From: a virus
Taxonomy: Duplodnaviria; Heunggongvirae; Uroviricota; Caudoviricetes
Strand: one strand, 5' to 3'
Virus record (IMG/VR): IMGVR_UViG_2851982317_000003
DNA: 49,084 nt
Shown: piece after piece, positions 4,963-47,788 of the stretch
How positions within the stretch are numbered: position 1 is the first letter of the stretch
Layout: every line of letters begins with the position of its first letter
The notes under the pieces: generated by a model
Told to the model about the DNA's origin: nothing
Seen by the model: only the letters and a program-made list of their open reading frames with translations
Database searches by the model: none
Translations under genes and position numbers: made by a program

Positions 4963-5633
4963 TGCTCCCCAAATACAAAACCAATTTCAGCCAGTGCCTC
5001 GTCCATTTTTTCGATGAACTCCGGCACCATCTCGTCAAAACTCGCCATGTACTTTTCATCCCGCTCAACCACGACATAATGCAGTCCTTCACGCTTCATA
5101 CGCGGGTCATAGTTGGCAAAGTACCAGGCATCTTTTCGCGTCACCCACATGCTGTACTGCACCTGGGCCATGTAAGCCGACTTTATGGCCTCGAAACCAC
5201 CGAGCCGGAACTTCATGAAATCCCGGGAGGTAAACGGGCATTTCAGCTCAAGGCCATTGCCGTCACTGCATAAACCATCGGGAGAGCAGGCGGTACGCAT
5301 ACTTTCGTCGCGATAGATGATCGGGGATTCAGTAACATTCACGCCGGAAGTGAATTCAAACAGAGTTCTGGCGTCGTTCTCGTACTGTTTTCCCCATGCC
5401 AGCGCCTTAGCATTAACTTCCGGAGCCACACCGGTGCAAACCTCAGCCAGCAGGGTGTGGAAGTAGGACATTTTCATGTCAGGCCACTTTTTTCCGGAGC
5501 GGGGTTTTGCTATCACATTGTGAACTTCTGAAGCGGTGATGACGCCGAGCCGTAATTTGTGCCACGCATCATCCCCCTGTTCGACAGCTCTCACGTCGAT
5601 TCCGGTACGCTGCAGGATAATGTCCGGTGTCAT
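4953..5633 (-). CDS. exo: Lambda exonuclease (Red-alpha)
   Basis: 226-aa ORF ([43 protein letters not shown]...). Confidence 0.97.
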
Positions 5634-6415
5634 GCAGCCACCTTCTGCTCAGTGGCTTTCTGTTTCAGGAATCCAAGAGCTTTCACTGCTTCGGCCTGTG
5701 TCAGTTCTGACGATGCGCGAATGTCGCGGCGAAATATCTGGGAACAGAGCGGCAATAAGTCGTCATCCCATGTTTTATCCAGGGCAATCAGCAGAGTGTT
5801 AATCTCCTGCATGGTTTCATCGTTAACCGGAGTGATGTCGCGTTCCGGCTGACGTTCTGCAGTGTATGCGGTATTTTCGACAATGCGCTCGGCTTCATCC
5901 TTGTCATAGATACCAGCAAATCCGAAGGCGAGACGGGCACACTGAATCATGGCTTTATGCCGTAACATCCGTTTGGGATGCGACTGCCACGGCCCCGTGA
6001 TTTCTCTGCCTTCGCGGGTTTTGAATGGTTCGCGGCGGCATTCATCCATCCACTCGGTAACGCAGATCGGATGATTGCGGTCTTTGCGGTAAATCCGGCA
6101 TGTGCAGGATTCGTTGTCCTGTTCAAAGTCCATGCCGTCAAACTGCTGGTTTTCGTTGATGATGCGGGACCAGCCATCAACGCCCACCACCGGAACGATG
6201 CCGTTCTGCTTATCAGGGAAGGCGTAAATTTCTTTCGTCCACGGATTAAGACCGTACTGGTTGGCGACGATCAGCAATGCGATGAACTGCGCATCGCTGG
6301 CATCACCTTTAAATGCCGTCTGGCGAAGAGTGGTGATCAGTTCCTGTGGGTCGACAGAATCCATGCCGACTCGTTCAGCCAGCTTCCCAGCCAGCGTTGC
6401 GAGTGCTGTACTCAT
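5630..6415 (-). CDS. bet: Bet single-strand annealing protein (Red-beta)
   Basis: 261-aa ORF ([37 protein letters not shown]...); overlaps exo start. Confidence 0.97.
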
Positions 6416-6420
6416 CCGTT

Positions 6421-6717
6421 TTATACCTCTGAATCAATATCAACCTGGTGGTGAGCAATGGTTTCAACCATGTACCGGATGTGTTCTGCCATGCGCTCCT
6501 GAAACTCAACATCGTCATCAAACGCACGGGTAATGGCTTTTTTGCTGGCCCCGTGGCGTTGCAAATGATCGATGCATAGCGATTCAAACAGGTGCTGGGG
6601 CAGGCCTTTTTCCATGTCGTCTGCCAGTTCTGCCTCTTTCTCTTCACGGGCGATCTGCTGGTAGTGACGCACCCAGCTCTGAGCCTCAAGACGATCCTGA
6701 ATGTAATAAGCGTTCAT
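6421..6717 (-). CDS. gam: Gam, RecBCD inhibitor (98-aa GamS-length form)
   Basis: [56 protein letters not shown]... Confidence 0.95.
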
Positions 6718-6792
6718 GGCTGAACTCCTGAAAATGGCTGTGAAAATATCGCCCGCGAAATGCCAGGCTGATTAGAAAAACAGGAAAGGGGA

Positions 6793-6999
6793 TTAGTGAT
6801 TCAGGCCGTTGCCGCGTCCGTCGAGAAAAACTTCCACGAGCAAGTCACGGGTATAAGTGCGCTCGATGCCGCGATGCAGATAAAGCCGTCCGCGTAAATT
6901 AGCTGATGCAGTCCAGGTACCATCTTTGTGTTTGACCAGCATTCCTGGCATGACCGCACCGCGATTAACGGTCTGCGTTCCGTAATGTTGATGAACCAT
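6793..6999 (-). CDS. kil: Kil-family host cell-division inhibitor (KilR-like), start at internal Met with AGGAG RBS
   Basis: 68-aa reading MVHQHYGTQTVNRGAVMPGMLVKHKDGTWTASANLRGRLYLHRG...VFLDGRG with KilR-like pattern (H..GT...PG..V.H...T..ASAN...LY...VFLGRDG); kil position next to gam. Confidence 0.6.
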   Translation of the reverse strand: MVHQHYGTQTVNRGAVMPGMLVKHKDGTWTASANLRGRLYLHRGIERTYTRDLLVEVFLDGRGNGLNH

Positions 7000-7259
7000 A
7001 AAAACTCCTGCCCGTAAGCTGGGCTGCTGAACATATAAAGACTTCTGCGCGTATTCAGGCGGTGGATGGCCGCCGGTTGTCATAACTAAGCCGCCTCGTT
7101 GAAGCGACTGAGGTATGAAGTGTTGAGTTGATTTCAGCTGGTCACACCGACGTTCACGCGTCCGCTTCACCCCTCGCACTCCCCGGAGCCTGCTGAAATT
7201 CAAGCTGCGGATCTAAGCGGTCATCGCAACGGTGAATCAGGTGATTGCCGTATCGTTGT

Positions 7260-7400
7260 GTTGTTGCGACATGGTGATAATAGCTATTGCTATTGATGAT
7301 ATCAATACTTATTGCTATTGATAGATGTGTTTTGATATTAAATATTTGATAGCAAAAAGAATTAATTTTGTGACTTGCATCGCATAGCGATAACTGAAGC
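7260..7400 (-). promoter_or_regulatory. Candidate OL/pL operator-promoter region (leftward early promoter)
   Basis: AT-rich block with repeated TTGCTATTG / TATTGAT motifs and an ATTGATGATATCAAT inverted repeat; the same words recur in the cI-cro intergenic region. Confidence 0.45.
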
Positions 7401-7444
7401 GGGGTTGTGGTGGTTTTTTGAACGGTGTGTGTGATGAGGGGAGG

Positions 7445-7472
7445 TAAAAGAAAACCCGGCACGGTGGCCGGG
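7445..7472 (-). terminator. Intrinsic terminator downstream of the DUF4411 gene (hairpin CCCGGC-ACGGTG-GCCGGG, U-run on minus strand; plausibly bidirectional)
   Basis: Perfect 6-bp GC stem with T-rich tracts on both sides, immediately after the stop of the 7478-7990 gene. Confidence 0.6.
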
Positions 7473-7477
7473 ACGTT

Positions 7478-7990
7478 TTATTTCAAAGAAAAATTATGAC
7501 TAGCGTATCTTGGAAGAAATTCATATAGTGTTAATGTCTTAACGCCGTGAGAAGCAGCAGCATCCGGGATCATTATTCTTTTTTTAGGTTTGCCACCGGA
7601 TGGTTTCTCATGGGTAATAATAGTATATCCATGTGTCATCGCATGGGCTATTAAAAAAGCATCTGCTTTTTCATGGCTTGCAAAATCAAACTTTGCCTTT
7701 TCGGTAACATCTAATTTAGTTGACCAATTTATTAACTTTGCATAATTTTCTATTGAACTATGCTCATCTTCGAAGAATGATGATGGTAACTCTTCTTTAA
7801 TCCATTTACACAATGGATCATCTTTTGCACATAGTTCTTTTTTTACAGCATTAATGCTATAAATCAGACCATTAATGTGTAAAGCGAGAAGAAAATCCCA
7901 AAATATTTTGCAATAATTGAAGTTATATGCAAAGTTTTTTGCCTCTATGAAGACATTACTATCAATTAAGAATTTTCCATTATGAATCAT
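7478..7990 (-). CDS. DUF4411-family (PIN-like fold) protein; second gene of the cI-proximal accessory cassette
   Basis: 170-aa ORF (MIHNGKFLIDSNVFIEAKNF...); start overlaps the stop of the upstream peptidase gene (ATGA), i.e. translationally coupled. Confidence 0.65.
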   Translation of the reverse strand: MIHNGKFLIDSNVFIEAKNFAYNFNYCKIFWDFLLALHINGLIYSINAVKKELCAKDDPLCKWIKEELPSSFFEDEHSSIENYAKLINWSTKLDVTEKAKFDFASHEKADAFLIAHAMTHGYTIITHEKPSGGKPKKRIMIPDAAASHGVKTLTLYEFLPRYASHNFSLK

Positions 7991-8581
7991 AGAGATTCTC
8001 GTTTTTTATAAAATTCAACAACTGTATCTGCTTTTACATTTAGCAGTACGCCTGCTTCCCTTAATGGTAATTGTTGAGACATTGCTTTGGAAATTATTAT
8101 ATTCGTAAGTTTTGGACTGTTGCGAACAGGTAATGTGTTAAAGAAAGAACCACCATTAGATTCTTTTTTGGGCTTATTGTAAGCTTGATCTTTAATTATC
8201 TCCAAAGTGTTTCTTTCTATCAAATCTAATTGTAACGCTTTGATTGCACAAGCGAAATCACTAACCTTAAATAACTTAGAAACCTCTTTTACTCGATAAT
8301 AATTATTATCGCTGGATGCATTAAGCCAGAAAGATTTGAAGAGATTATCAGGCATTAAGATTTCAGCAGCAACTTTATTACAAAAAGATTCTATGTTTTT
8401 TTCTGTGTCCCACCCAGAGACTCCATCGACTCCAAGCCAAAGATGAGCCACCTCATGAAATAATGTAAATACCTGCGCAGATAACGCGTCCGAGCTATTT
8501 ACAAAAATGATCGGAGCAACGCTATCAGATATACAGAAACCACGAAACTCTCGCGTGTCAAGTTTTCTTTTATTATTATTA

Positions 8582-17385: not shown

Positions 17386-18468
17386 TTAGAACTGATACAC
17401 CAGACCTACAGCGACGATGTCGTCGGTATCAATACCAGCTGTTTTGGTAAACTTACTATCGTCAATTAAGTTGATTTTGTAATCAACAAAAGTGGACATG
17501 TTTTTATTAAAGTAGTAAGTAGCACCGACATCGACATACTTGACTAAGTCTCGGTCACCATGAACACCAAGGTCTTTACCTTTTGACTGAAGGTAAGCAA
17601 CAGATGGTCGCAGACCGAAGTCAAACTGATATTGTGCTACTGCTTCAAAGTTTTGTGCTTTGTTTGCAATATGGTTATTACCAAAAACGGTCATATTCTG
17701 AGTTTCAGAATATGTGGTAGCCAGATAGATATTGTTCGCATCATATTTCAGGCCTGCAGCCCATACTTCCGCATTTTTGCCGGAGGCATTGAATTTGCTC
17801 TTACCATAGGCGACCTGACCGTCAGTGCGATCTGATTTAGCATAGGTTGCACCCACGCCGAATCCTTCATACTCATAAGTAGTGGAGAAACCGAAACCAT
17901 CACCATTGGCTTCAGTTACGTCAGTGCGGTCATTTTTACCCTGATACTGAGCAGCAAAGTTCAGGCCATCGACCAGACCAAAGAAGTCGTTGTTACGATA
18001 GGTTGCAACACCAGTGGTGCGACCAGTCATGAACACATCTGTTTGGGTCCAGGTATCGCCACCGAATTCTGGCAGAACGTCAGTCCACGCACCGATGTCG
18101 TATGCTACACCGTAGTTACGGCCGTAATCGATTGAGCCGTAGTCACCGAATTTCAGGCCTGCAAATGCAAGACGGGTTTTGTCTTTGGAGGAACCTTGAG
18201 ATTCAGCGCGGTTGCCTTTGAATTCATATTCCCACTGACCGAAACCAGTCAGTTGATCGTTGATTTGGGTTTCACCTTTGAAGCCAAGACGGGCATAAGT
18301 AGTATCACCATCATCTGCATCATTAGAGGAGAAGTAGTGCTTAGCATTAACTTTCCCGTACAGATCCAGCTTGTTACTGTCTTTATTATAAATTTCAGCT
18401 GCCTGAGCAGACATCGCCATCAGTACTGATGCAGCTACAGCAGAAATTGCCACTGTTAATTTTTTCAT
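17386..18468 (-). CDS. nmpC: OmpC-family trimeric porin, phage-borne (Lc / NmpC-like lysogenic-conversion gene)
   Basis: 360-aa ORF with signal peptide ([23 protein letters not shown]), AEIYNKD...C-terminal VYQF; between Q and holin in opposite orientation. Confidence 0.9.
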
Positions 18469-21158: not shown

Positions 21159-21680
21159 ATGAATATCGTGCCACTTAATTACAAAGGTGAAATTGTCAGT
21201 TTCAACACTGATGGTTGGATCAACGTCACAGGTGTTGCTGAGAGATTTGGGAAACGCATTGATAACTGGATGCGTTTGGCAGAAACGCTTGAATACGTTC
21301 GTGCTTTAGACGAAGCGTTGACCGGGAAAGAATCTCAAATTTTACATCCCTCACAATCGAGGTATGTAAAAACCAGCAAGGCACGAAAGGACAGGGGTGG
21401 TGGTACGTGGCTACATCCAAAACTTTCAGTTGCATTTGCCCGTTGGTGTGATGCTCGTTTTGCTGTGTGGTGCGACCTGCACATTGATAGTCTGCTTCGC
21501 GGTGAACTGACTGAGCAGCAGAAATATGAGCAAGCATGTCGCATTCGCGATGACCGGAAATCAAAAGCCAGCAATGGGGCAAGAGAGATGGCTCGCTGGC
21601 GATGGGATAAGCCGGTTATTGAAGCAAATGTTGAGTACTGGCGCGAGCAACTGCAGTTGACTCTCGATATCGCGTGCTGA
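21159..21680 (+). CDS. KilA-N domain protein
   Basis: 173-aa ORF with KilA-N-like core (GTWLHPKLSVAFARWCDARFAVWCD). Confidence 0.55.
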   Translation: MNIVPLNYKGEIVSFNTDGWINVTGVAERFGKRIDNWMRLAETLEYVRALDEALTGKESQILHPSQSRYVKTSKARKDRGGGTWLHPKLSVAFARWCDARFAVWCDLHIDSLLRGELTEQQKYEQACRIRDDRKSKASNGAREMARWRWDKPVIEANVEYWREQLQLTLDIAC

Positions 21681-21748
21681 TGGCAAACGCAAAACGTAAC
21701 CGGCTCATTTAAACCGTCTGGTCTGTTTCCTCCGGCTCTACAAAAATA

Positions 21749-22426
21749 ATGTCCATCATTTTTAATGGACACTATCGTATGAAACACCGGACCTGGATCA
21801 CTGAAGCTTTACGTCTTCACTTTGAAGAACATTTACCCCGGGTTGTGGCCGGGCGTCGCCTGGGTGTACCAAAATCAACAGTTTGTAGTATGTTCGTGCG
21901 CTTTCGGAGAGCTGGCCTTTCGTGGCCTTTGCCCGCAGGCATGTCGGAGCAGGAACTTGATGCCTGCCTTTACGGACAATTTTCCACGGTACCAGTCGTA
22001 CGTCCTGAAAGCACCGTTATATCCGAAGCCCCCGTGGTAAAAAAACGTCCCCGGCGGCCCAACTTCCCTTATGAGTTTAAAATCGCCTTAGTGGAGCAGT
22101 CACTGCAGCCCGGAGCCTGTGTGGCGCAGATCGCCCGGGAAAACGGAATCAACGATAACCTGCTCTTCAACTGGCGCCATCAATACCGGAAAGGTGGCCT
22201 GCTGCCTTCCGGAAAAAATATGCCGGCACTGCTTCCCGTGACGTTAACGCCGGAGCCGGATAATAAAATCCCGGCCCCCGCACAGGAACCAGAGCAGATA
22301 AATACACCGTCCGACAGTCTGTGTTGTGAGCTGGTTCTGCCGGCCGGAACTCTCAGGCTTAAAGGTAAACTGACGCCGGCGTTATTACAGACACTTATCC
22401 GCGAAATAAAAGGGAGCAGCCACTGA
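21749..22426 (+). CDS. IS66-family accessory protein TnpA (orfA); start uncertain
   Basis: Contains the PRRPNFPYEFKIALVEQSLQPGACVAQIARENGINDNLLFNWRHQYRKG motif. Confidence 0.7.
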   Translation: MSIIFNGHYRMKHRTWITEALRLHFEEHLPRVVAGRRLGVPKSTVCSMFVRFRRAGLSWPLPAGMSEQELDACLYGQFSTVPVVRPESTVISEAPVVKKRPRRPNFPYEFKIALVEQSLQPGACVAQIARENGINDNLLFNWRHQYRKGGLLPSGKNMPALLPVTLTPEPDNKIPAPAQEPEQINTPSDSLCCELVLPAGTLRLKGKLTPALLQTLIREIKGSSH

Positions 22427-22773
22427 TGATATCTCTCCCTGCAGGTTCGCGTATCTGGCTGGTTGCAGGTATCACCGATATGCGAAATGGCTTTAACGGC
22501 CTGGCATCAAAAGTTCAGAACGTCCTGAAGGATGACCCGTTCTCCGGACACCTGTTCATCTTCCGCGGACGCCGGGGTGACCAGATAAAAGTGTTGTGGG
22601 CTGACAGTGACGGACTGTGCCTCTTCACCAAACGCCTGGAGCGGGGCCGCTTCGTCTGGCCAGTCACCCGTGACGGCAAGGTGCACCTTACTCCGGCTCA
22701 GTTATCCATGCTTCTTGAAGGTATCAACTGGAAGCACCCGAAACGAACGGAACGCGCTGGAATCCGCATATAA
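22426..22773 (+). CDS. IS66-family TnpB (orfB)
   Basis: 115-aa ORF MISLPAGSRIWLVAGITDMRNGFNGLASKV..., start overlapping the orfA stop. Confidence 0.85.
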   Translation: MISLPAGSRIWLVAGITDMRNGFNGLASKVQNVLKDDPFSGHLFIFRGRRGDQIKVLWADSDGLCLFTKRLERGRFVWPVTRDGKVHLTPAQLSMLLEGINWKHPKRTERAGIRI

Positions 22774-22792
22774 CCCGTTGTAAAGTGAGGAT

Positions 22793-24364
22793 ATGGACAC
22801 CTCACTTGCTCATGAGAACGCCCGCCTGCGGGCACTGTTGCAGACGCAACAGGACACCATCCGCCAGATGGCTGAATACAACCGCCTGCTCTCACAGCGG
22901 GTGGCGGCTTATGCTTCCGAAATCAACCGGCTGAAGGCGCTGGTTGCGAAACTGCAACGTATGCAGTTCGGTAAAAGCTCAGAAAAACTTCGTGCAAAAA
23001 CCGAACGGCAGATACAGGAAGCACAGGAGCGAATCAGCGCACTTCAGGAAGAAATGGCGGAAACGCTGGGTGAGCAATATGACCCGGTACTGCCATCCGC
23101 CCTGCGCCAGTCTTCAGCCCGTAAACCGTTACCGGCCTCACTTCCCCGTGAAACCCGGGTTATCCGGCCGGAAGAGGAATGCTGTCCTGCCTGTGGTGGT
23201 GAACTCAGTTCTCTGGGATGTGATGTGTCAGAGCAACTGGAGCTTATCAGCAGCGCCTTTAAGGTTATTGAAACACAACGTCCGAAACAGGCCTGTTGCC
23301 GGTGCGACCATATCGTGCAGGCACCAGTACCTTCAAAACCCATTGCACGCAGTTATGCCGGAGCGGGGCTTCTGGCCCATGTTGTCACCGGGAAATATGC
23401 AGACCATCTGCCGTTATACCGCCAGTCAGAAATATACCGTCGTCAGGGAGTGGAGCTGAGCCGTGCCACACTGGGGCGCTGGACAGGTGCTGTTGCTGAA
23501 CTGCTGGAGCCGCTGTATGACGTCCTGCGCCAGTATGTGCTGATGCCCGGTAAAGTCCATGCTGATGATATCCCCGTCCCGGTCCAGGAGCCGGGCAGCG
23601 GTAAAACCCGGACAGCCCGGCTGTGGGTCTACGTCCGTGATGACCGTAACGCCGGTTCACAGATGCCCCCGGCGGTCTGGTTCGCGTACAGTCCGGACCG
23701 GAAAGGTATCCATCCACAAAATCACCTGGCCGGTTACAGCGGTGTGCTTCAGGCCGATGCTTACGGTGGTTACCGGGCGTTATACGAATCCGGCAGAATA
23801 ACGGAAGCCGCGTGTATGGCTCATGCCCGGAGAAAAATCCACGATGTGCATGCAAGAGCGCCCACCTACATCACCACGGAAGCCCTGCAGCGTATCGGTG
23901 AACTGTATGCCATCGAGGCAGAGGTCCGGGGCTGTTCAGCAGAACAGCGTCTGGCGGCAAGAAAAGCCAGAGCCGCGCCACTGATGCAGTCACTGTATGA
24001 CTGGATACAGCAACAGATGAAAACACTGTCGCGTCACTCAGATACGGCAAAAGCGTTCGCATACCTGCTGAAACAGTGGGATGCACTGAACGTGTACTGC
24101 AGTAATGGCTGGGTGGAAATCGACAACAACATCGCAGAGAACGCCTTACGGGGAGTGGCCGTAGGCCGGAAAAACTGGATGTTCGCGGGTTCCGACAGCG
24201 GTGGTGAACATGCGGCGGTGTTGTACTCGCTGATCGGCACATGCCGTCTGAACAATGTGGAGCCAGAAAAGTGGCTGCGTTACGTCATTGAACATATCCA
24301 GGACTGGCCGGCAAACCGGGTACGCGATCTGTTGCCCTGGAAAGTTGATCTGAGCTCTCAGTAA
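22793..24364 (+). CDS. IS66-family transposase TnpC (leucine zipper, zinc finger, DDE domain)
   Basis: 523-aa ORF with CPACGG...CxxC zinc-finger and DDE region. Confidence 0.9.
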
Positions 24365-24807
24365 ATATCAATACGGTTCTGACGAGTCGCTTACGACTGA
24401 TGGAAAGACATCCTAATTTCAGCCAAACATTGAAGGAGTTGTTATGTCAGCAGAAGGTTTCAATAACCCATCAAAATTCCGGGATGAGTGGGATAGCAGC
24501 GTAAAGAGTAAGTGATGCCATCACAAAAGCCATTCCCTACAGAGTGGCTTTGATAATGGCTTATACCCTACACGGGATAACTTAACTGATATCCCTTTTA
24601 AAGGATAAAGGTATTCAAGCCTGACACATCATGCGCTGTATCGTCGCCGTATTCCCGTATTAACAGAGACCGTAGCCCGACGGGGAACTCCTTCTGCGCG
24701 AGTGTGCGGGAATAATCAAAAACGATGCACACCGGGGTTACCGGGTACACATATTTCATCATGCCAGCGAGTCCGGTTCTGGCACGGAAGAAACCGGACG
24801 TTATGAT

Positions 24808-25218
24808 TTAGTGCGGAAATATTTGTGTAGTGTTCTGAATGTTCTCAGTAAAGAGTAATGAATTATCAAAGGTATAGTAATACCTTTTGTTTTCGTGGAT
24901 ATTTGTAATCCATCTGAAAACCCCTGCTGTAGCAAGATTTTTCCTGTATTCGTAAAATGATAACTCTCCTGATTTGAATCCTTTTAAGGTGGCTTCTATA
25001 AGGCATTTATTTTTTGAAAATCTTACATTTACAACCTTACCCTGTCCTTTTATTAAAACCGTATTATCGTTTTCAAGAACAAGATGAATATTCTCTGTGG
25101 CTAAATAGTAAATGTAATGTGAGACATTGTGACGTTTTAGTTCAGAATAAAACCAGTGATAGTTTAAATTATTTCGCACTTTATCGAATATTTGTTTAAA
25201 AATGGCAACCTGAGCCAT
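24808..25218 (-). CDS. ybcV: YbcV-like (DUF1398) prophage protein; start at MAQVAIF
   Basis: [58 protein letters not shown]... Confidence 0.8.
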
Positions 25219-25275
25219 TGTAGTACCTTCCATGTGATATGAGGGGGCGTAGTCTGCACGATTATCTAGATTGCT

Positions 25276-25509
25276 TCAATCTGGTCTAACCTGTTTTCTG
25301 AGCAATTCAGTAATGTCACTCTTTTCTTTGTTTGCTTCAGGCGAAACTCTTTTTTCTGAGCACAGTCTCCGGCGGCAGGCTTCAATGACCCAGGCTGAGA
25401 AATTCCCGGACCCTTTTTGAACAAGAGCGATGTTAATTTGTTCAATCATTTGGTTAGGAAAGCGGATGTTGCGGGTTGTTGTTCTGCGGGTTCTGTTCTT
25501 CGTTGACAT
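25276..25509 (-). CDS. ylcI: YlcI-like small protein; real gene is the C-terminal 77 codons of the 25276-25782 track ORF
   Basis: MSTKNRTRRTTTRNIRFPNQMIEQINIALVQKGSGNFSAWVIEACRRRL...; the track ORF runs spuriously across cos. Confidence 0.7.
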   Translation of the reverse strand: MSTKNRTRRTTTRNIRFPNQMIEQINIALVQKGSGNFSAWVIEACRRRLCSEKRVSPEANKEKSDITELLRKQVRPD

Positions 25510-26443: not shown

Positions 26444-30124
<3,681 letters not shown>

Positions 30125-30144
<20 letters not shown>

Positions 30145-45436: not shown

Positions 45437-47788
45437 ATGGCAGCAGTAAAAATCTCAGGTGTGCTGAAAGATGGTGCGGGAAAACCAATACAGAACTGCA
45501 CTATTCAACTGAAGGCAAAGCGTAACAGCACCACGGTACTGGTGAACACGGTGGCCTCTGAAAATCCGGATGAAGCCGGACGTTACAGCATGGATGTTGA
45601 GTATGGCCAGTACAGCGTCACCCTGCTGGTTGAAGGTTTTCCGCCTTCACATGCCGGGACCATTACCGTCTATGAAGGCTCCAGACCAGGTACGCTGAAT
45701 GATTTTCTCGGTGCCATGACGGAAGATGATGTCATGCCGGAGGCATTGCGTCGTTTTGAGGCAATGGTGGAAGAAGTGGCACGCAACGCCGAAGCCGCCT
45801 CTCAGAGCGCAGCGGCGGCAAAGAAATCCGAAACTGCAGCGGCATCATCAAAGAACGCGGCGAAAACCTCAGAAACGAATGCAGCTAATAGTGCACAGGC
45901 GGCAGCGACCTCACAGACTGCATCAGCAAACTCCGCGACAGCAGCCAAAAAATCAGAAACCAACGCGAAAAACAGCGAGACAGCCGCAAAGACGAGCGAA
46001 ACCAACGCAAAGTCCAGCCAGACGGCAGCGAAAACCAGCGAAACGAATGCCAAAGCCAGTGAAACTGCGGCAAAAAACAGCCAGGTTGCGGCAGCCGGTT
46101 CTGCGACTTCAGCAGCTGGATCAGCAACTGCTGCGGCTAACAGCCAGAAAGCTGCGAAGACGAGTGAAACTAACGCAAAGTCCAGCCAGACGGCAGCGAA
46201 GACCAGCGAAACGAATGCCAAAGCCAGCGAAACTGCGGCGAAAAACAGCCAGGATGCAGCAGCCCAAAGCGAGAGTGCCGCAGCTGGTTCTGCAAGTGCG
46301 GCGGCTTCTTCTGCCACTGCATCAGCCAACAGTCAAAAAGCAGCAAAAACCAGTGAAACCAACACAAAGGCGAGCGAGACTGCGGCGACTAACTCGGCGA
46401 AAGCATCCGCTGCAAGCCAGATGGCTGCAAAAGCAAGTGAAGACGCAGCCAGAGAGTATGCAAGCCAGGCAGCAGAGCCGTATAAATATGTCTTACAGCC
46501 ACTGCCTGATGTGTGGATACCGTTTAATGACTCGATGGATATGATTACAGGATTTGGCCCGGGATATAAAAAAATAACAGTGCGCGATGATGTGGTCACT
46601 ATACCATCCGACAAAATTGTCCCGTTTTCCCGCGCGAGTTCCGCGACCTATATCAATAAGTCCGGCGCTCTTACCATTGCAGAAATTAATGAGCCACGTT
46701 TTGAAAAAGAAGGGCTGTTAATTGAAGGGCAGAGAACAAATTACTTCACAAACTCAAACGCTCCGGAATTGTGGAATAAAAATCCAGGCCTGAAGATAAG
46801 CGAGACAAAAACCGATTCCAGGGGTTTTAAATATGCAACGTTTACCCCAGAAAAATATTTAGATAGTTCTGGCTCATATGGAATTATATCAGGGGCAGCA
46901 GCAAATAAGATAGCGGTAGTCAAAAATGATGCAGTTACAATATCCTTTAGAGCAAAAGGGGATAATGTAAGATTTGCGGCTAGATTTGATAAAGGGGATT
47001 CGCCAGTTGCTGTAGCTGCCATTTTTATTGATAGCGCCACACTAGATACATTCACGTCTGGAGCAGATGCGTCTAATATTGCTGTGAAAAATGTTGTTCG
47101 TGACGGTGAGTGGGTTGCTGTAGAGGCTGTTTATAAAGTAACAGACGACTCTACATATATTAACGGCGCCATTCTGATGTCAAACAAACTGGGTGCTAAT
47201 TTTGATAAGACTAGTTTTATGGATGTAACCACCCCTCAAATAGAGCTAGGTTCTTGCTTATCATCATTTATTGTCACACCAGGTGTTCCTGCGACAAGGG
47301 CGAGTGATATGGTTATTTTTTCAACCAGAAATAACATAAGTTCTGTCCCTTTAAGCTGTCTTGTTGAAATACATAAAAATTGGGACTCTACGCCAAATCA
47401 GGCCCCACGAATTTTAACCACTATTGGCGTGGCGACTAATGATGAACAACTGGTATTGGCTTTCAGGACGCCTACAAGTCCGGATGTAGAACCTTTACCT
47501 TATGTTCAGTTTGGAGTGAGATCTGCATATCTTAGTCCATCTGTGAAGGCCGGGCGCAAAATGATTGCTGGTTTTGTCTGTAATAGCTCGACTGAATTTC
47601 GTTGCTGTTGTAATGGTTACCTGTCACCTGTTCAGACTTCGTCATGGAAGAATACCGGAGCTGCACATGAAATACGTATTGGGGGAACTTCTGCTGGAGG
47701 AGAACGTCACTTGTTTGGTCACGTTCGTAACCTGAGAATATGGCATAAAGAATTAACTGATGCGCAAATGGGGGAGAGTATTAAATGA
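45437..47788 (+). CDS. stf: Side tail fibre Stf (lambda-like N-terminus, Ala/Ser/Thr-rich repeat shaft, divergent low-GC C-terminal domain)
   Basis: MAAVKISGVLKDGAGKPIQNCTIQLKAKRNSTTVLVNTVASENPDEAGRYSMDVEYGQYSV... is lambda Stf-like at the N-terminus. Confidence 0.85.
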   Translation: MAAVKISGVLKDGAGKPIQNCTIQLKAKRNSTTVLVNTVASENPDEAGRYSMDVEYGQYSVTLLVEGFPPSHAGTITVYEGSRPGTLNDFLGAMTEDDVMPEALRRFEAMVEEVARNAEAASQSAAAAKKSETAAASSKNAAKTSETNAANSAQAAATSQTASANSATAAKKSETNAKNSETAAKTSETNAKSSQTAAKTSETNAKASETAAKNSQVAAAGSATSAAGSATAAANSQKAAKTSETNAKSSQTAAKTSETNAKASETAAKNSQDAAAQSESAAAGSASAAASSATASANSQKAAKTSETNTKASETAATNSAKASAASQMAAKASEDAAREYASQAAEPYKYVLQPLPDVWIPFNDSMDMITGFGPGYKKITVRDDVVTIPSDKIVPFSRASSATYINKSGALTIAEINEPRFEKEGLLIEGQRTNYFTNSNAPELWNKNPGLKISETKTDSRGFKYATFTPEKYLDSSGSYGIISGAAANKIAVVKNDAVTISFRAKGDNVRFAARFDKGDSPVAVAAIFIDSATLDTFTSGADASNIAVKNVVRDGEWVAVEAVYKVTDDSTYINGAILMSNKLGANFDKTSFMDVTTPQIELGSCLSSFIVTPGVPATRASDMVIFSTRNNISSVPLSCLVEIHKNWDSTPNQAPRILTTIGVATNDEQLVLAFRTPTSPDVEPLPYVQFGVRSAYLSPSVKAGRKMIAGFVCNSSTEFRCCCNGYLSPVQTSSWKNTGAAHEIRIGGTSAGGERHLFGHVRNLRIWHKELTDAQMGESIK
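45790..46440 (+). repeat. Tandem and direct DNA repeats inside stf (about 33-bp periodicity; near-identical ~95-bp copies at about 45991-46088 and 46158-46252)
   Basis: Repeated GACGAG(C/T)GAAAC(C/T)AACGCAAAGTCCAGCCAGACGGCAGCGAA...; encodes AAKTSETNAKxS repeats. Confidence 0.85.

Follow-up and report, generated by a model that had tools for sequence, protein, structure and literature searches.

Organization of the locus

The window analyzed here is the whole 49,084-nucleotide stretch of IMG/VR record IMGVR_UViG_2851982317_000003, from a virus of the Caudoviricetes, and the feature under study is an insertion sequence (IS) of the IS66 family that follows a KilA-N domain gene (kilA-N) in it. 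The host element is a probably defective lambda-like prophage of an Escherichia coli lineage that includes O25 and enterotoxigenic E. coli (ETEC) strains. The IS occupies a non-essential slot, with the lysis genes and kilA-N on one side and the DUF1398, YlcI and terminase genes on the other. Positions of the IS, its open reading frames (ORFs) and its surroundings are collected in Table 1, where gene names given by the Prokaryotic Genome Annotation Pipeline are marked PGAP.

Table 1. Features of the IS and its flanks (positions in the window)
Feature	Position	Strand	Evidence or remark
KilA-N domain gene, intact, left-hand context	21159..21680	+	PF04383 8e-22; PGAP WP_001028465.1 on identical DNA
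15 bp of original intergenic DNA, TGGCAAACGCAAAAC, from kilA-N stop codon to IS	21681..21695	.	Last base is the secondary (deletion) junction
ISCro1	21696..24394	+	100% identical to the E2528-C1 locus labelled ISCro1 by PGAP
Left terminal inverted repeat, GTAACCGGCTCATTTAAACCGTCTGG	21696..21721	+	Terminus shared with 12 other copies whose left flanks are unrelated
tnpA, long-form IS66 accessory protein, 225 aa	21749..22426	+	NF038385 residues 13-206, 1e-88; HTH_Tnp_1 residues 102-159
tnpB, IS66 Orf2-type accessory protein, 115 aa	22426..22773	+	PF05717 4.7e-40; NF033819
tnpC, IS66 DDE transposase, 523 aa	22793..24364	+	PF03050 2.5e-103; NF033517 2e-143
Right terminal inverted repeat, ending ...GAGTCGCTTAC	24369..24394	+	Comparison with left repeat and other copies
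GACTGATG, surviving right copy of the original 8-bp target duplication	24395..24402	.	Sister strains have GACTGATG on both sides at the same site
Right-hand 123 bp left over from a hairpin-bounded cassette of ~360 bp	24395..24517	+	Cassette in IS-free sibling, HK544 and Salmonella phage Emek; not in ev099
Complete 23-codon ORF, MSAEGFNNPSKFRDEWDSSVKSK	24444..24515	+	GAAGGAG Shine-Dalgarno at 24432-24438, 5 nt upstream
Stable hairpin, second copy of the ~40-bp repeat bounding the cassette	24517..24560	+	Inverted repeat I7; -22.4 kcal/mol, z = -4.0
54-codon ORF, conserved backbone	24598..24762	-	Annotated gp70 in ev099; not called by PGAP

Identity and termini of the insertion sequence

The three genes of the IS are co-directional and intact, and the matches of their products to NF038385, NF033819 and NF033517 exceed the curated cut-offs. 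As read off the sequence, tnpA ends and tnpB begins in an overlapping ATGA. In addition to its transposase domain, TnpC has matches to zf-IS66 (PF13005), LZ_Tnp_IS66 (PF13007) and DDE_Tnp_IS66_C (PF13817). The ORF positions and these domain and family matches confirm the observation of an earlier note on this DNA, made without database searches, which had described a three-ORF IS66-type element after the KilA-N gene.

In a megablast search of the complete E. coli genomes, window positions 21500-25300 matched strain E2528-C1 at 100% identity over the whole query, and PGAP labels that locus 'IS66-like element ISCro1 family transposase'. The three products encoded in the window are identical to the PGAP-named proteins WP_001339397.1, WP_000624622.1 and WP_000381395.1. 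By these comparisons, window positions 21696-24394 are a complete ISCro1 of 2699 bp and of the consensus sequence type, named here after the PGAP labels.

The first ~100 residues of TnpA (window 21749-22050) form an N-terminal extension that is a subfamily trait covered by NF038385. Residues 1-100 have no Pfam match and were considered as a fusion with an IS21-type fragment, and thereby as a sign of a truncated left end; this was rejected, as NF038385 covers residues 13-206 and the segment is present in every copy.

Imperfect terminal inverted repeats beginning GTAA are a hallmark of the IS66 family. The ends of the window element, 21696 and 24394, were fixed by comparing copies; a generic inverted-repeat scan did not single out the true IS ends, the pair I3 being one among many equally good chance pairs. 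The element begins at base 21696 with GTAACCGG..., and its left and right repeats agree at 18 of 26 positions, the left one starting GTAACCG and the right one GTAAGCG. The earlier note had thus correctly seen that GTAAGCG occurs at the right terminus only and that the left repeat is imperfect. Its reading of this imperfection as a sign of damage did not hold, because other ISCro1 copies end likewise: the 12 further copies analyzed all start with GTAACCGGCTCA and end with GAGTCGCTTAC (GAGCCGCTTAC in one of them). Judging from this comparison of copies, the GTAACCG left end is native to ISCro1, and both termini of the window element are intact.

Duplications of 8 bp bracket 11 of the 12 other copies, with one pair matching at only 7 of 8 positions, and some of the duplications recur in sister genomes. 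They read GAACTGAG, GACTGATG, GGGGTTAC, CCTGAAAC, GGGAATAA, TGAACAGT, CTAAAATC, GCTGAACG and, for the 7/8 match, TAACAAGA/TAACAAAA. The twelfth copy, in strain 203740, has no duplication and is a further deletion product. Database matches that begin 16-19 bp to the left of the IS gave the appearance of a left junction common to the window, O26/O103 strains, a phage and a plasmid. We rejected this as BLAST extension only; the O26/O103, phage and plasmid copies have unrelated flanks and their own duplications.

Over its length the window IS shows no differences from three sister-genome copies and one or two from copies in unrelated strains. It is probably functional and still active.

Target site and sister genomes

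Immediately outside the window IS, the 8 bp read CGCAAAAC to its left and GACTGATG to its right, and a target duplication is absent, as the earlier note had stated. This absence is secondary, because 11 other copies and the same-site insertion in strain NCCP 13717 have a duplication, and it is no argument against membership in IS66 or ISCro1.

The history of the site can be read from six sister E. coli complete genomes that share the prophage and the right junction of the window. Over 1900 bp to the right of the IS, all six IS-bearing loci show 0 differences from the window. To the left, there are 0 differences over 1418 bp in four of the six, while E1441 is comparable for 316 bp only and 2014EL-1343-2 is not comparable. 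The loci represent several distinct states. NCCP 13717 has a simple insertion, GACTGATG|IS|GACTGATG, with flanks identical to those of the window. In 2014EL-1343-2 and E1441, the GACTGATG-flanked copy is accompanied by a second, direct copy 259 bp upstream that is flanked by GAACTGAG. F5505-C1 contains a single IS with the left flank of the upstream copy and the right flank of the downstream copy, and is a recombinant of the two; HMDUC-17 is in the same state, judged solely from an identical match span. In the window, and identically in E2528-C1, the left flank ends at CGCAAAAC, 38 bp further left. A larger loss is that of 203740, an IS-anchored deletion that truncates kilA-N and has its left junction after window position 21507.

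The uninterrupted site is provided by S1-CAM-01-C, which has the same prophage proteins without the IS, and in which CGCAAAAC and GACTGATG lie 281 bp apart. Up to position 21695, the window is 100% identical to this IS-free sibling and to phage ev099, and both then run on with TGCGTTATCG... On the right, the window preserves the junction made by the original insertion (IS|GACTGATG). The one on the left (CGCAAAAC|IS) arose secondarily, with loss of 281 bp of the uninterrupted site and of the left copy of the 8-bp duplication. The window is accordingly 289 bp shorter than NCCP 13717, which also keeps the second duplication copy.

Sister genomes and empty site therefore support the adjacent deletion or rearrangement that the earlier note had suspected. 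As for a simple recent insertion without loss, which that note would have recognized by intact ends together with a perfect duplication, intact ends were found and a duplication was not.

The deleted cassette and its remnant

Comparison with related prophages, which the earlier note had recommended, allowed the lost DNA to be reconstructed as 281 bp of a cassette of about 360 bp. In S1-CAM-01-C, the cassette occupies locus positions 2601-2960 and carries no annotated feature. It is composite, as HK544 and Emek share all of it, and HK620 and Sf6 share only the left part, which is the part deleted in the window. In the P22-like phages HK620 and Sf6 this left half is 94-96% identical and likewise lies in unannotated DNA. 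It contains a 26-codon hydrophobic ORF on the minus strand behind an AGGAGG motif, with a C-terminus that varies in Emek and HK544. Phage ev099, identical to the window up to 21695 and again from 24518, lacks the ~360-bp cassette altogether. A scan of the intact cassette gave no Rfam match and no sigma-70-like promoter past threshold. Of the two hairpin copies that bound it, the upstream one, seen in the empty site, has z = -5.6.

The DNA lost from the window is thus unannotated cassette and not bor. The earlier note had placed the IS in the slot where DLP12-type phages carry bor, and the position is indeed equivalent; bor as the displaced DNA is not borne out. A tblastn search with lambda bor as positive control found no bor homologue in the window, and bor is not annotated in the corresponding slot of ev099 or S1-CAM-01-C.

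The remnant that had been noticed to the right of the IS is real, with a length of 123 bp and not of 400 bp. Its 23-codon ORF had been taken for a fragment, and for the sole content of the 400 bp; it is complete, being identical and of the same length in IS-free relatives, and the 54-codon minus-strand ORF of Table 1 lies in the same 400 bp. The 23-codon ORF is unannotated in all records examined, and in Emek, where orf53 overlaps it in another frame, it differs by two synonymous changes only. This restriction to synonymous changes faintly hints that the putative ORF may be coding. With regard to the features expected of a moron, namely a promoter of its own, a coding gene and a terminator, the segment 24395-24560 has a stable hairpin after the ORF and a good ribosome-binding site, and no promoter was found in the cassette.

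Ordinary phage backbone begins at about 24518, where similarity to ev099 resumes, and from 24632 it is shared with lambda as well. The 54-codon ORF belongs to this conserved backbone. It was considered as a gene and set aside: the homologous stretch in lambda has no start codon and contains frame-breaking indels, so that the reading frame is not kept there, and the ORF is probably non-coding.

Sequence tracts within the insertion sequence

The bodies of the IS copies differ between the sister genomes. The same-site copy in NCCP 13717, F5505-C1 and E1441 (copy 2) carries a tract of 21 single-nucleotide polymorphisms (SNPs) at IS positions 772-1719, and in the 203740 copy the tract is longer, with about 60 SNPs and an end at position 2609. 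Consensus-type bodies are seen in the window IS, which has none of the tract SNPs, in both 2014EL-1343-2 copies and in the upstream E1441 copy. The single-copy insertion of the sister genome has the variant allele and the body of the window IS does not, so that the latter must have been shaped by homologous exchange with a consensus copy, either through a crossover to the right of position 1719 with an upstream copy or through gene conversion.

The copy at this one insertion site exists in three states, with about 60, 21 and 0 SNPs relative to the consensus and with unchanged flanks. The pattern looks like stepwise gene conversion of a single IS copy by other genomic copies.

Origin of the deletion

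The left junction of the window falls precisely at the first IS base, without microhomology to the DNA that was deleted, which points to an end defined by the transposase and not to a random deletion. That the locus holds an ISCro1 with IS-mediated loss of adjacent DNA is, in our judgment, nearly certain. For the route by which the loss occurred, we lean towards two steps, because sister genomes have both two-copy intermediates and a recombinant of the two copies at the same locus. A second consensus-type ISCro1 would have inserted at CGCAAAAC, in direct orientation and a few hundred bp upstream of the resident copy. Homologous recombination between both copies would then have removed one IS equivalent together with the intervening DNA, leaving a single IS whose flanks are hybrid and whose body is of the consensus type. 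The predicted intermediate has CGCAAAAC on both sides of the upstream ISCro1 and a right-end junction of GAGTCGCTTAC followed by CGCAAAACTGCGTTATCG. Taken as a whole, a full-length ISCro1 with an adjacent deletion that most likely passed through two copies is the best explanation, to which we assign a probability of about three in four.

Several points weigh against this explanation. The two-copy intermediate for the CGCAAAAC flank (IS right end, then CGCAAAACTGCG...) was not found in 5,426 complete E. coli genomes, searched with a synthetic junction query at a criterion of at least 80% query coverage, which no record reached. Gene conversion could also have given the resident copy its consensus-type body, as it apparently did for copy 2 of 2014EL-1343-2, and a one-step deletion would then be just as possible. 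The succession of states across the seven genomes is tentative, and the name ISCro1 comes from PGAP labels, not from the ISfinder reference entry for ISCro1.

In such a one-step deletion, the resident ISCro1 would transpose intramolecularly, its left end attacking a target 281 bp upstream, with the DNA between them being lost and no stable second copy being formed. The exactness of the junction at the IS terminus agrees with this, as do the failure to find the CGCAAAAC-duplicated intermediate and the combination of one fixed right junction with left end-points at three nested places (behind ..GAACTGAG, behind CGCAAAAC and within kilA-N). Moreover, the 8 bp to the left of both deletion junctions, CGCAAAAC and CGGTGAAC, resemble the genuine ISCro1 target CCTGAAAC. 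We nevertheless consider a one-step origin unlikely, as the window IS is without the 21-SNP tract and a separate gene conversion would be needed, and as two-copy intermediates do exist for the GAACTGAG end-point. A literature search on the transposition mechanism of IS66 and on adjacent deletions yielded nothing relevant to it, and no worked-out account of IS66-family transposition chemistry was found in the literature searched. It is a doubtful proposition that the nested deletions with a fixed ISCro1 end are a natural record of one-ended, transposase-driven intramolecular transposition. A lesser one is that the conserved 23-codon ORF beside the IS may be a genuine gene for a phage micro-protein.

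An assembly artefact, with a tandem two-copy arrangement collapsed to one IS, deserves mention since direct 2.7-kb repeats 259 bp apart, as present in sister strains, are hard to assemble. Collapse of the known two-copy form would, however, leave the ..GAACTGAG left flank and not CGCAAAAC, with the additional 38 bp still missing, and window 21500-25300, both junctions included, is matched at 100% identity by a finished genome, that of E2528-C1; an artefact is thus very improbable. Even less credence is due to a simple insertion into a variant that already lacked the 281 bp, with later erasure of the duplication by point mutations. The slot is mosaic, which would suit it, as ev099 lacks the whole cassette and HK620 and Sf6 have the left part only. 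But CGCAAAAC and GACTGATG differ at 6 of 8 positions, none of the IS-free relatives examined joins the two (CGCAAAAC followed by GACTGATGGAAAG), and the flanks are otherwise 100% identical to those of sister prophages that keep the missing DNA and have the same right junction, so that an insertion into a pre-deleted site is close to refuted. Recombination between two copies remains the route that we favor over these alternatives, and we hold to it with less assurance than to the IS-mediated loss itself.

Prophage context and nearby insertions

The lambda-type portal gene of the prophage (window 28543-30144) has an in-frame stop at codon 115 (28885-28887; ...EVEAA*KEFAEDD), and PGAP flags the portal gene with 'internal stop' in 203740 and E1441. 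From this stop, the prophage is probably defective. Upstream of the lysis genes, a 360-codon ORF lies on the minus strand at window 17386-18468, where porin OmpC is annotated in the sister prophages and an OmpD porin in ev099; by its position, it is a candidate cargo gene of the prophage.

In unrelated prophages, ISCro1 has inserted independently a few hundred bp away, each time with a duplication of its own, namely GGGAATAA in APEC17, GGGGTTAC in 64EVA and CCTGAAAC in CFSAN018748, the last inside the small terminase gene. Coordinates for these nearby insertions are window 24708-24715 and 24734-24741, and 5459-8157 in one extracted locus; all have the same orientation. The region may be a local hotspot for ISCro1, but the design of the search made such cases more likely to be found.

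Comparison with known systems

Citrobacter rodentium ICC168, with its 24 copies, is the organism for which ISCro1 was first listed (PMC3072379); in E. coli ST131, the element has been described upstream of afaA (PMC8764528). The ST131 paper gives a length of 2,824 bp, compared with 2699 bp between the termini in every copy examined here. The window element has the same three genes, termini and length as the other E. coli copies. Where it differs is in the 8-bp duplication, which it lost when its left flank was replaced.

Other IS66-family members of E. coli share about 71% DNA identity with the window element, over part of tnpC only. ISEc8 of Shiga toxin (Stx) phages and a short-TnpA IS66 element on plasmid NZ_OZ040275 have the same tnpA-tnpB-tnpC layout and a DDE transposase with the IS66 zinc finger. 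TnpA of these other members has about 134 aa (405-bp gene) versus 225 aa in ISCro1, and the long form constitutes its own NCBIfam family, NF038385.

In position, the window IS corresponds to a slot of lambda and DLP12, the bor/moron slot, that has Rz on one side and the DUF1398 (ybcV-like) gene on the other; the lambda backbone aligning to window 24632-25292 has bor (46462-46752) immediately on its left. Unlike that slot in lambda and DLP12, the window prophage has kilA-N and a small hairpin-bounded cassette.

An ISCro1 insertion with an adjacent deletion is already known biology and textbook IS behavior, and the value of the analysis is mainly for annotation: the IS ends are placed at 21696/24394, the missing duplication has an ordinary cause, and the loss did not include bor or a similar cargo gene. 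The E. coli series, from empty site through single insertion, double insertion and recombinant to two further deletions, also offers a worked example of IS-driven prophage erosion, and tests of how deletions are formed by IS66-family elements could set out from it.

Adjacent deletions and recombination between direct IS copies are textbook for IS1, IS26, IS629 and others. As in those cases, one original junction is kept, the other flank is replaced, a duplication is absent, and related strains have nested end-points. What is mildly unusual, in comparison with the textbook deletions, is the completeness of the intermediate states, as sequenced sisters still hold a duplication-flanked single copy, a two-copy form and several of the products.

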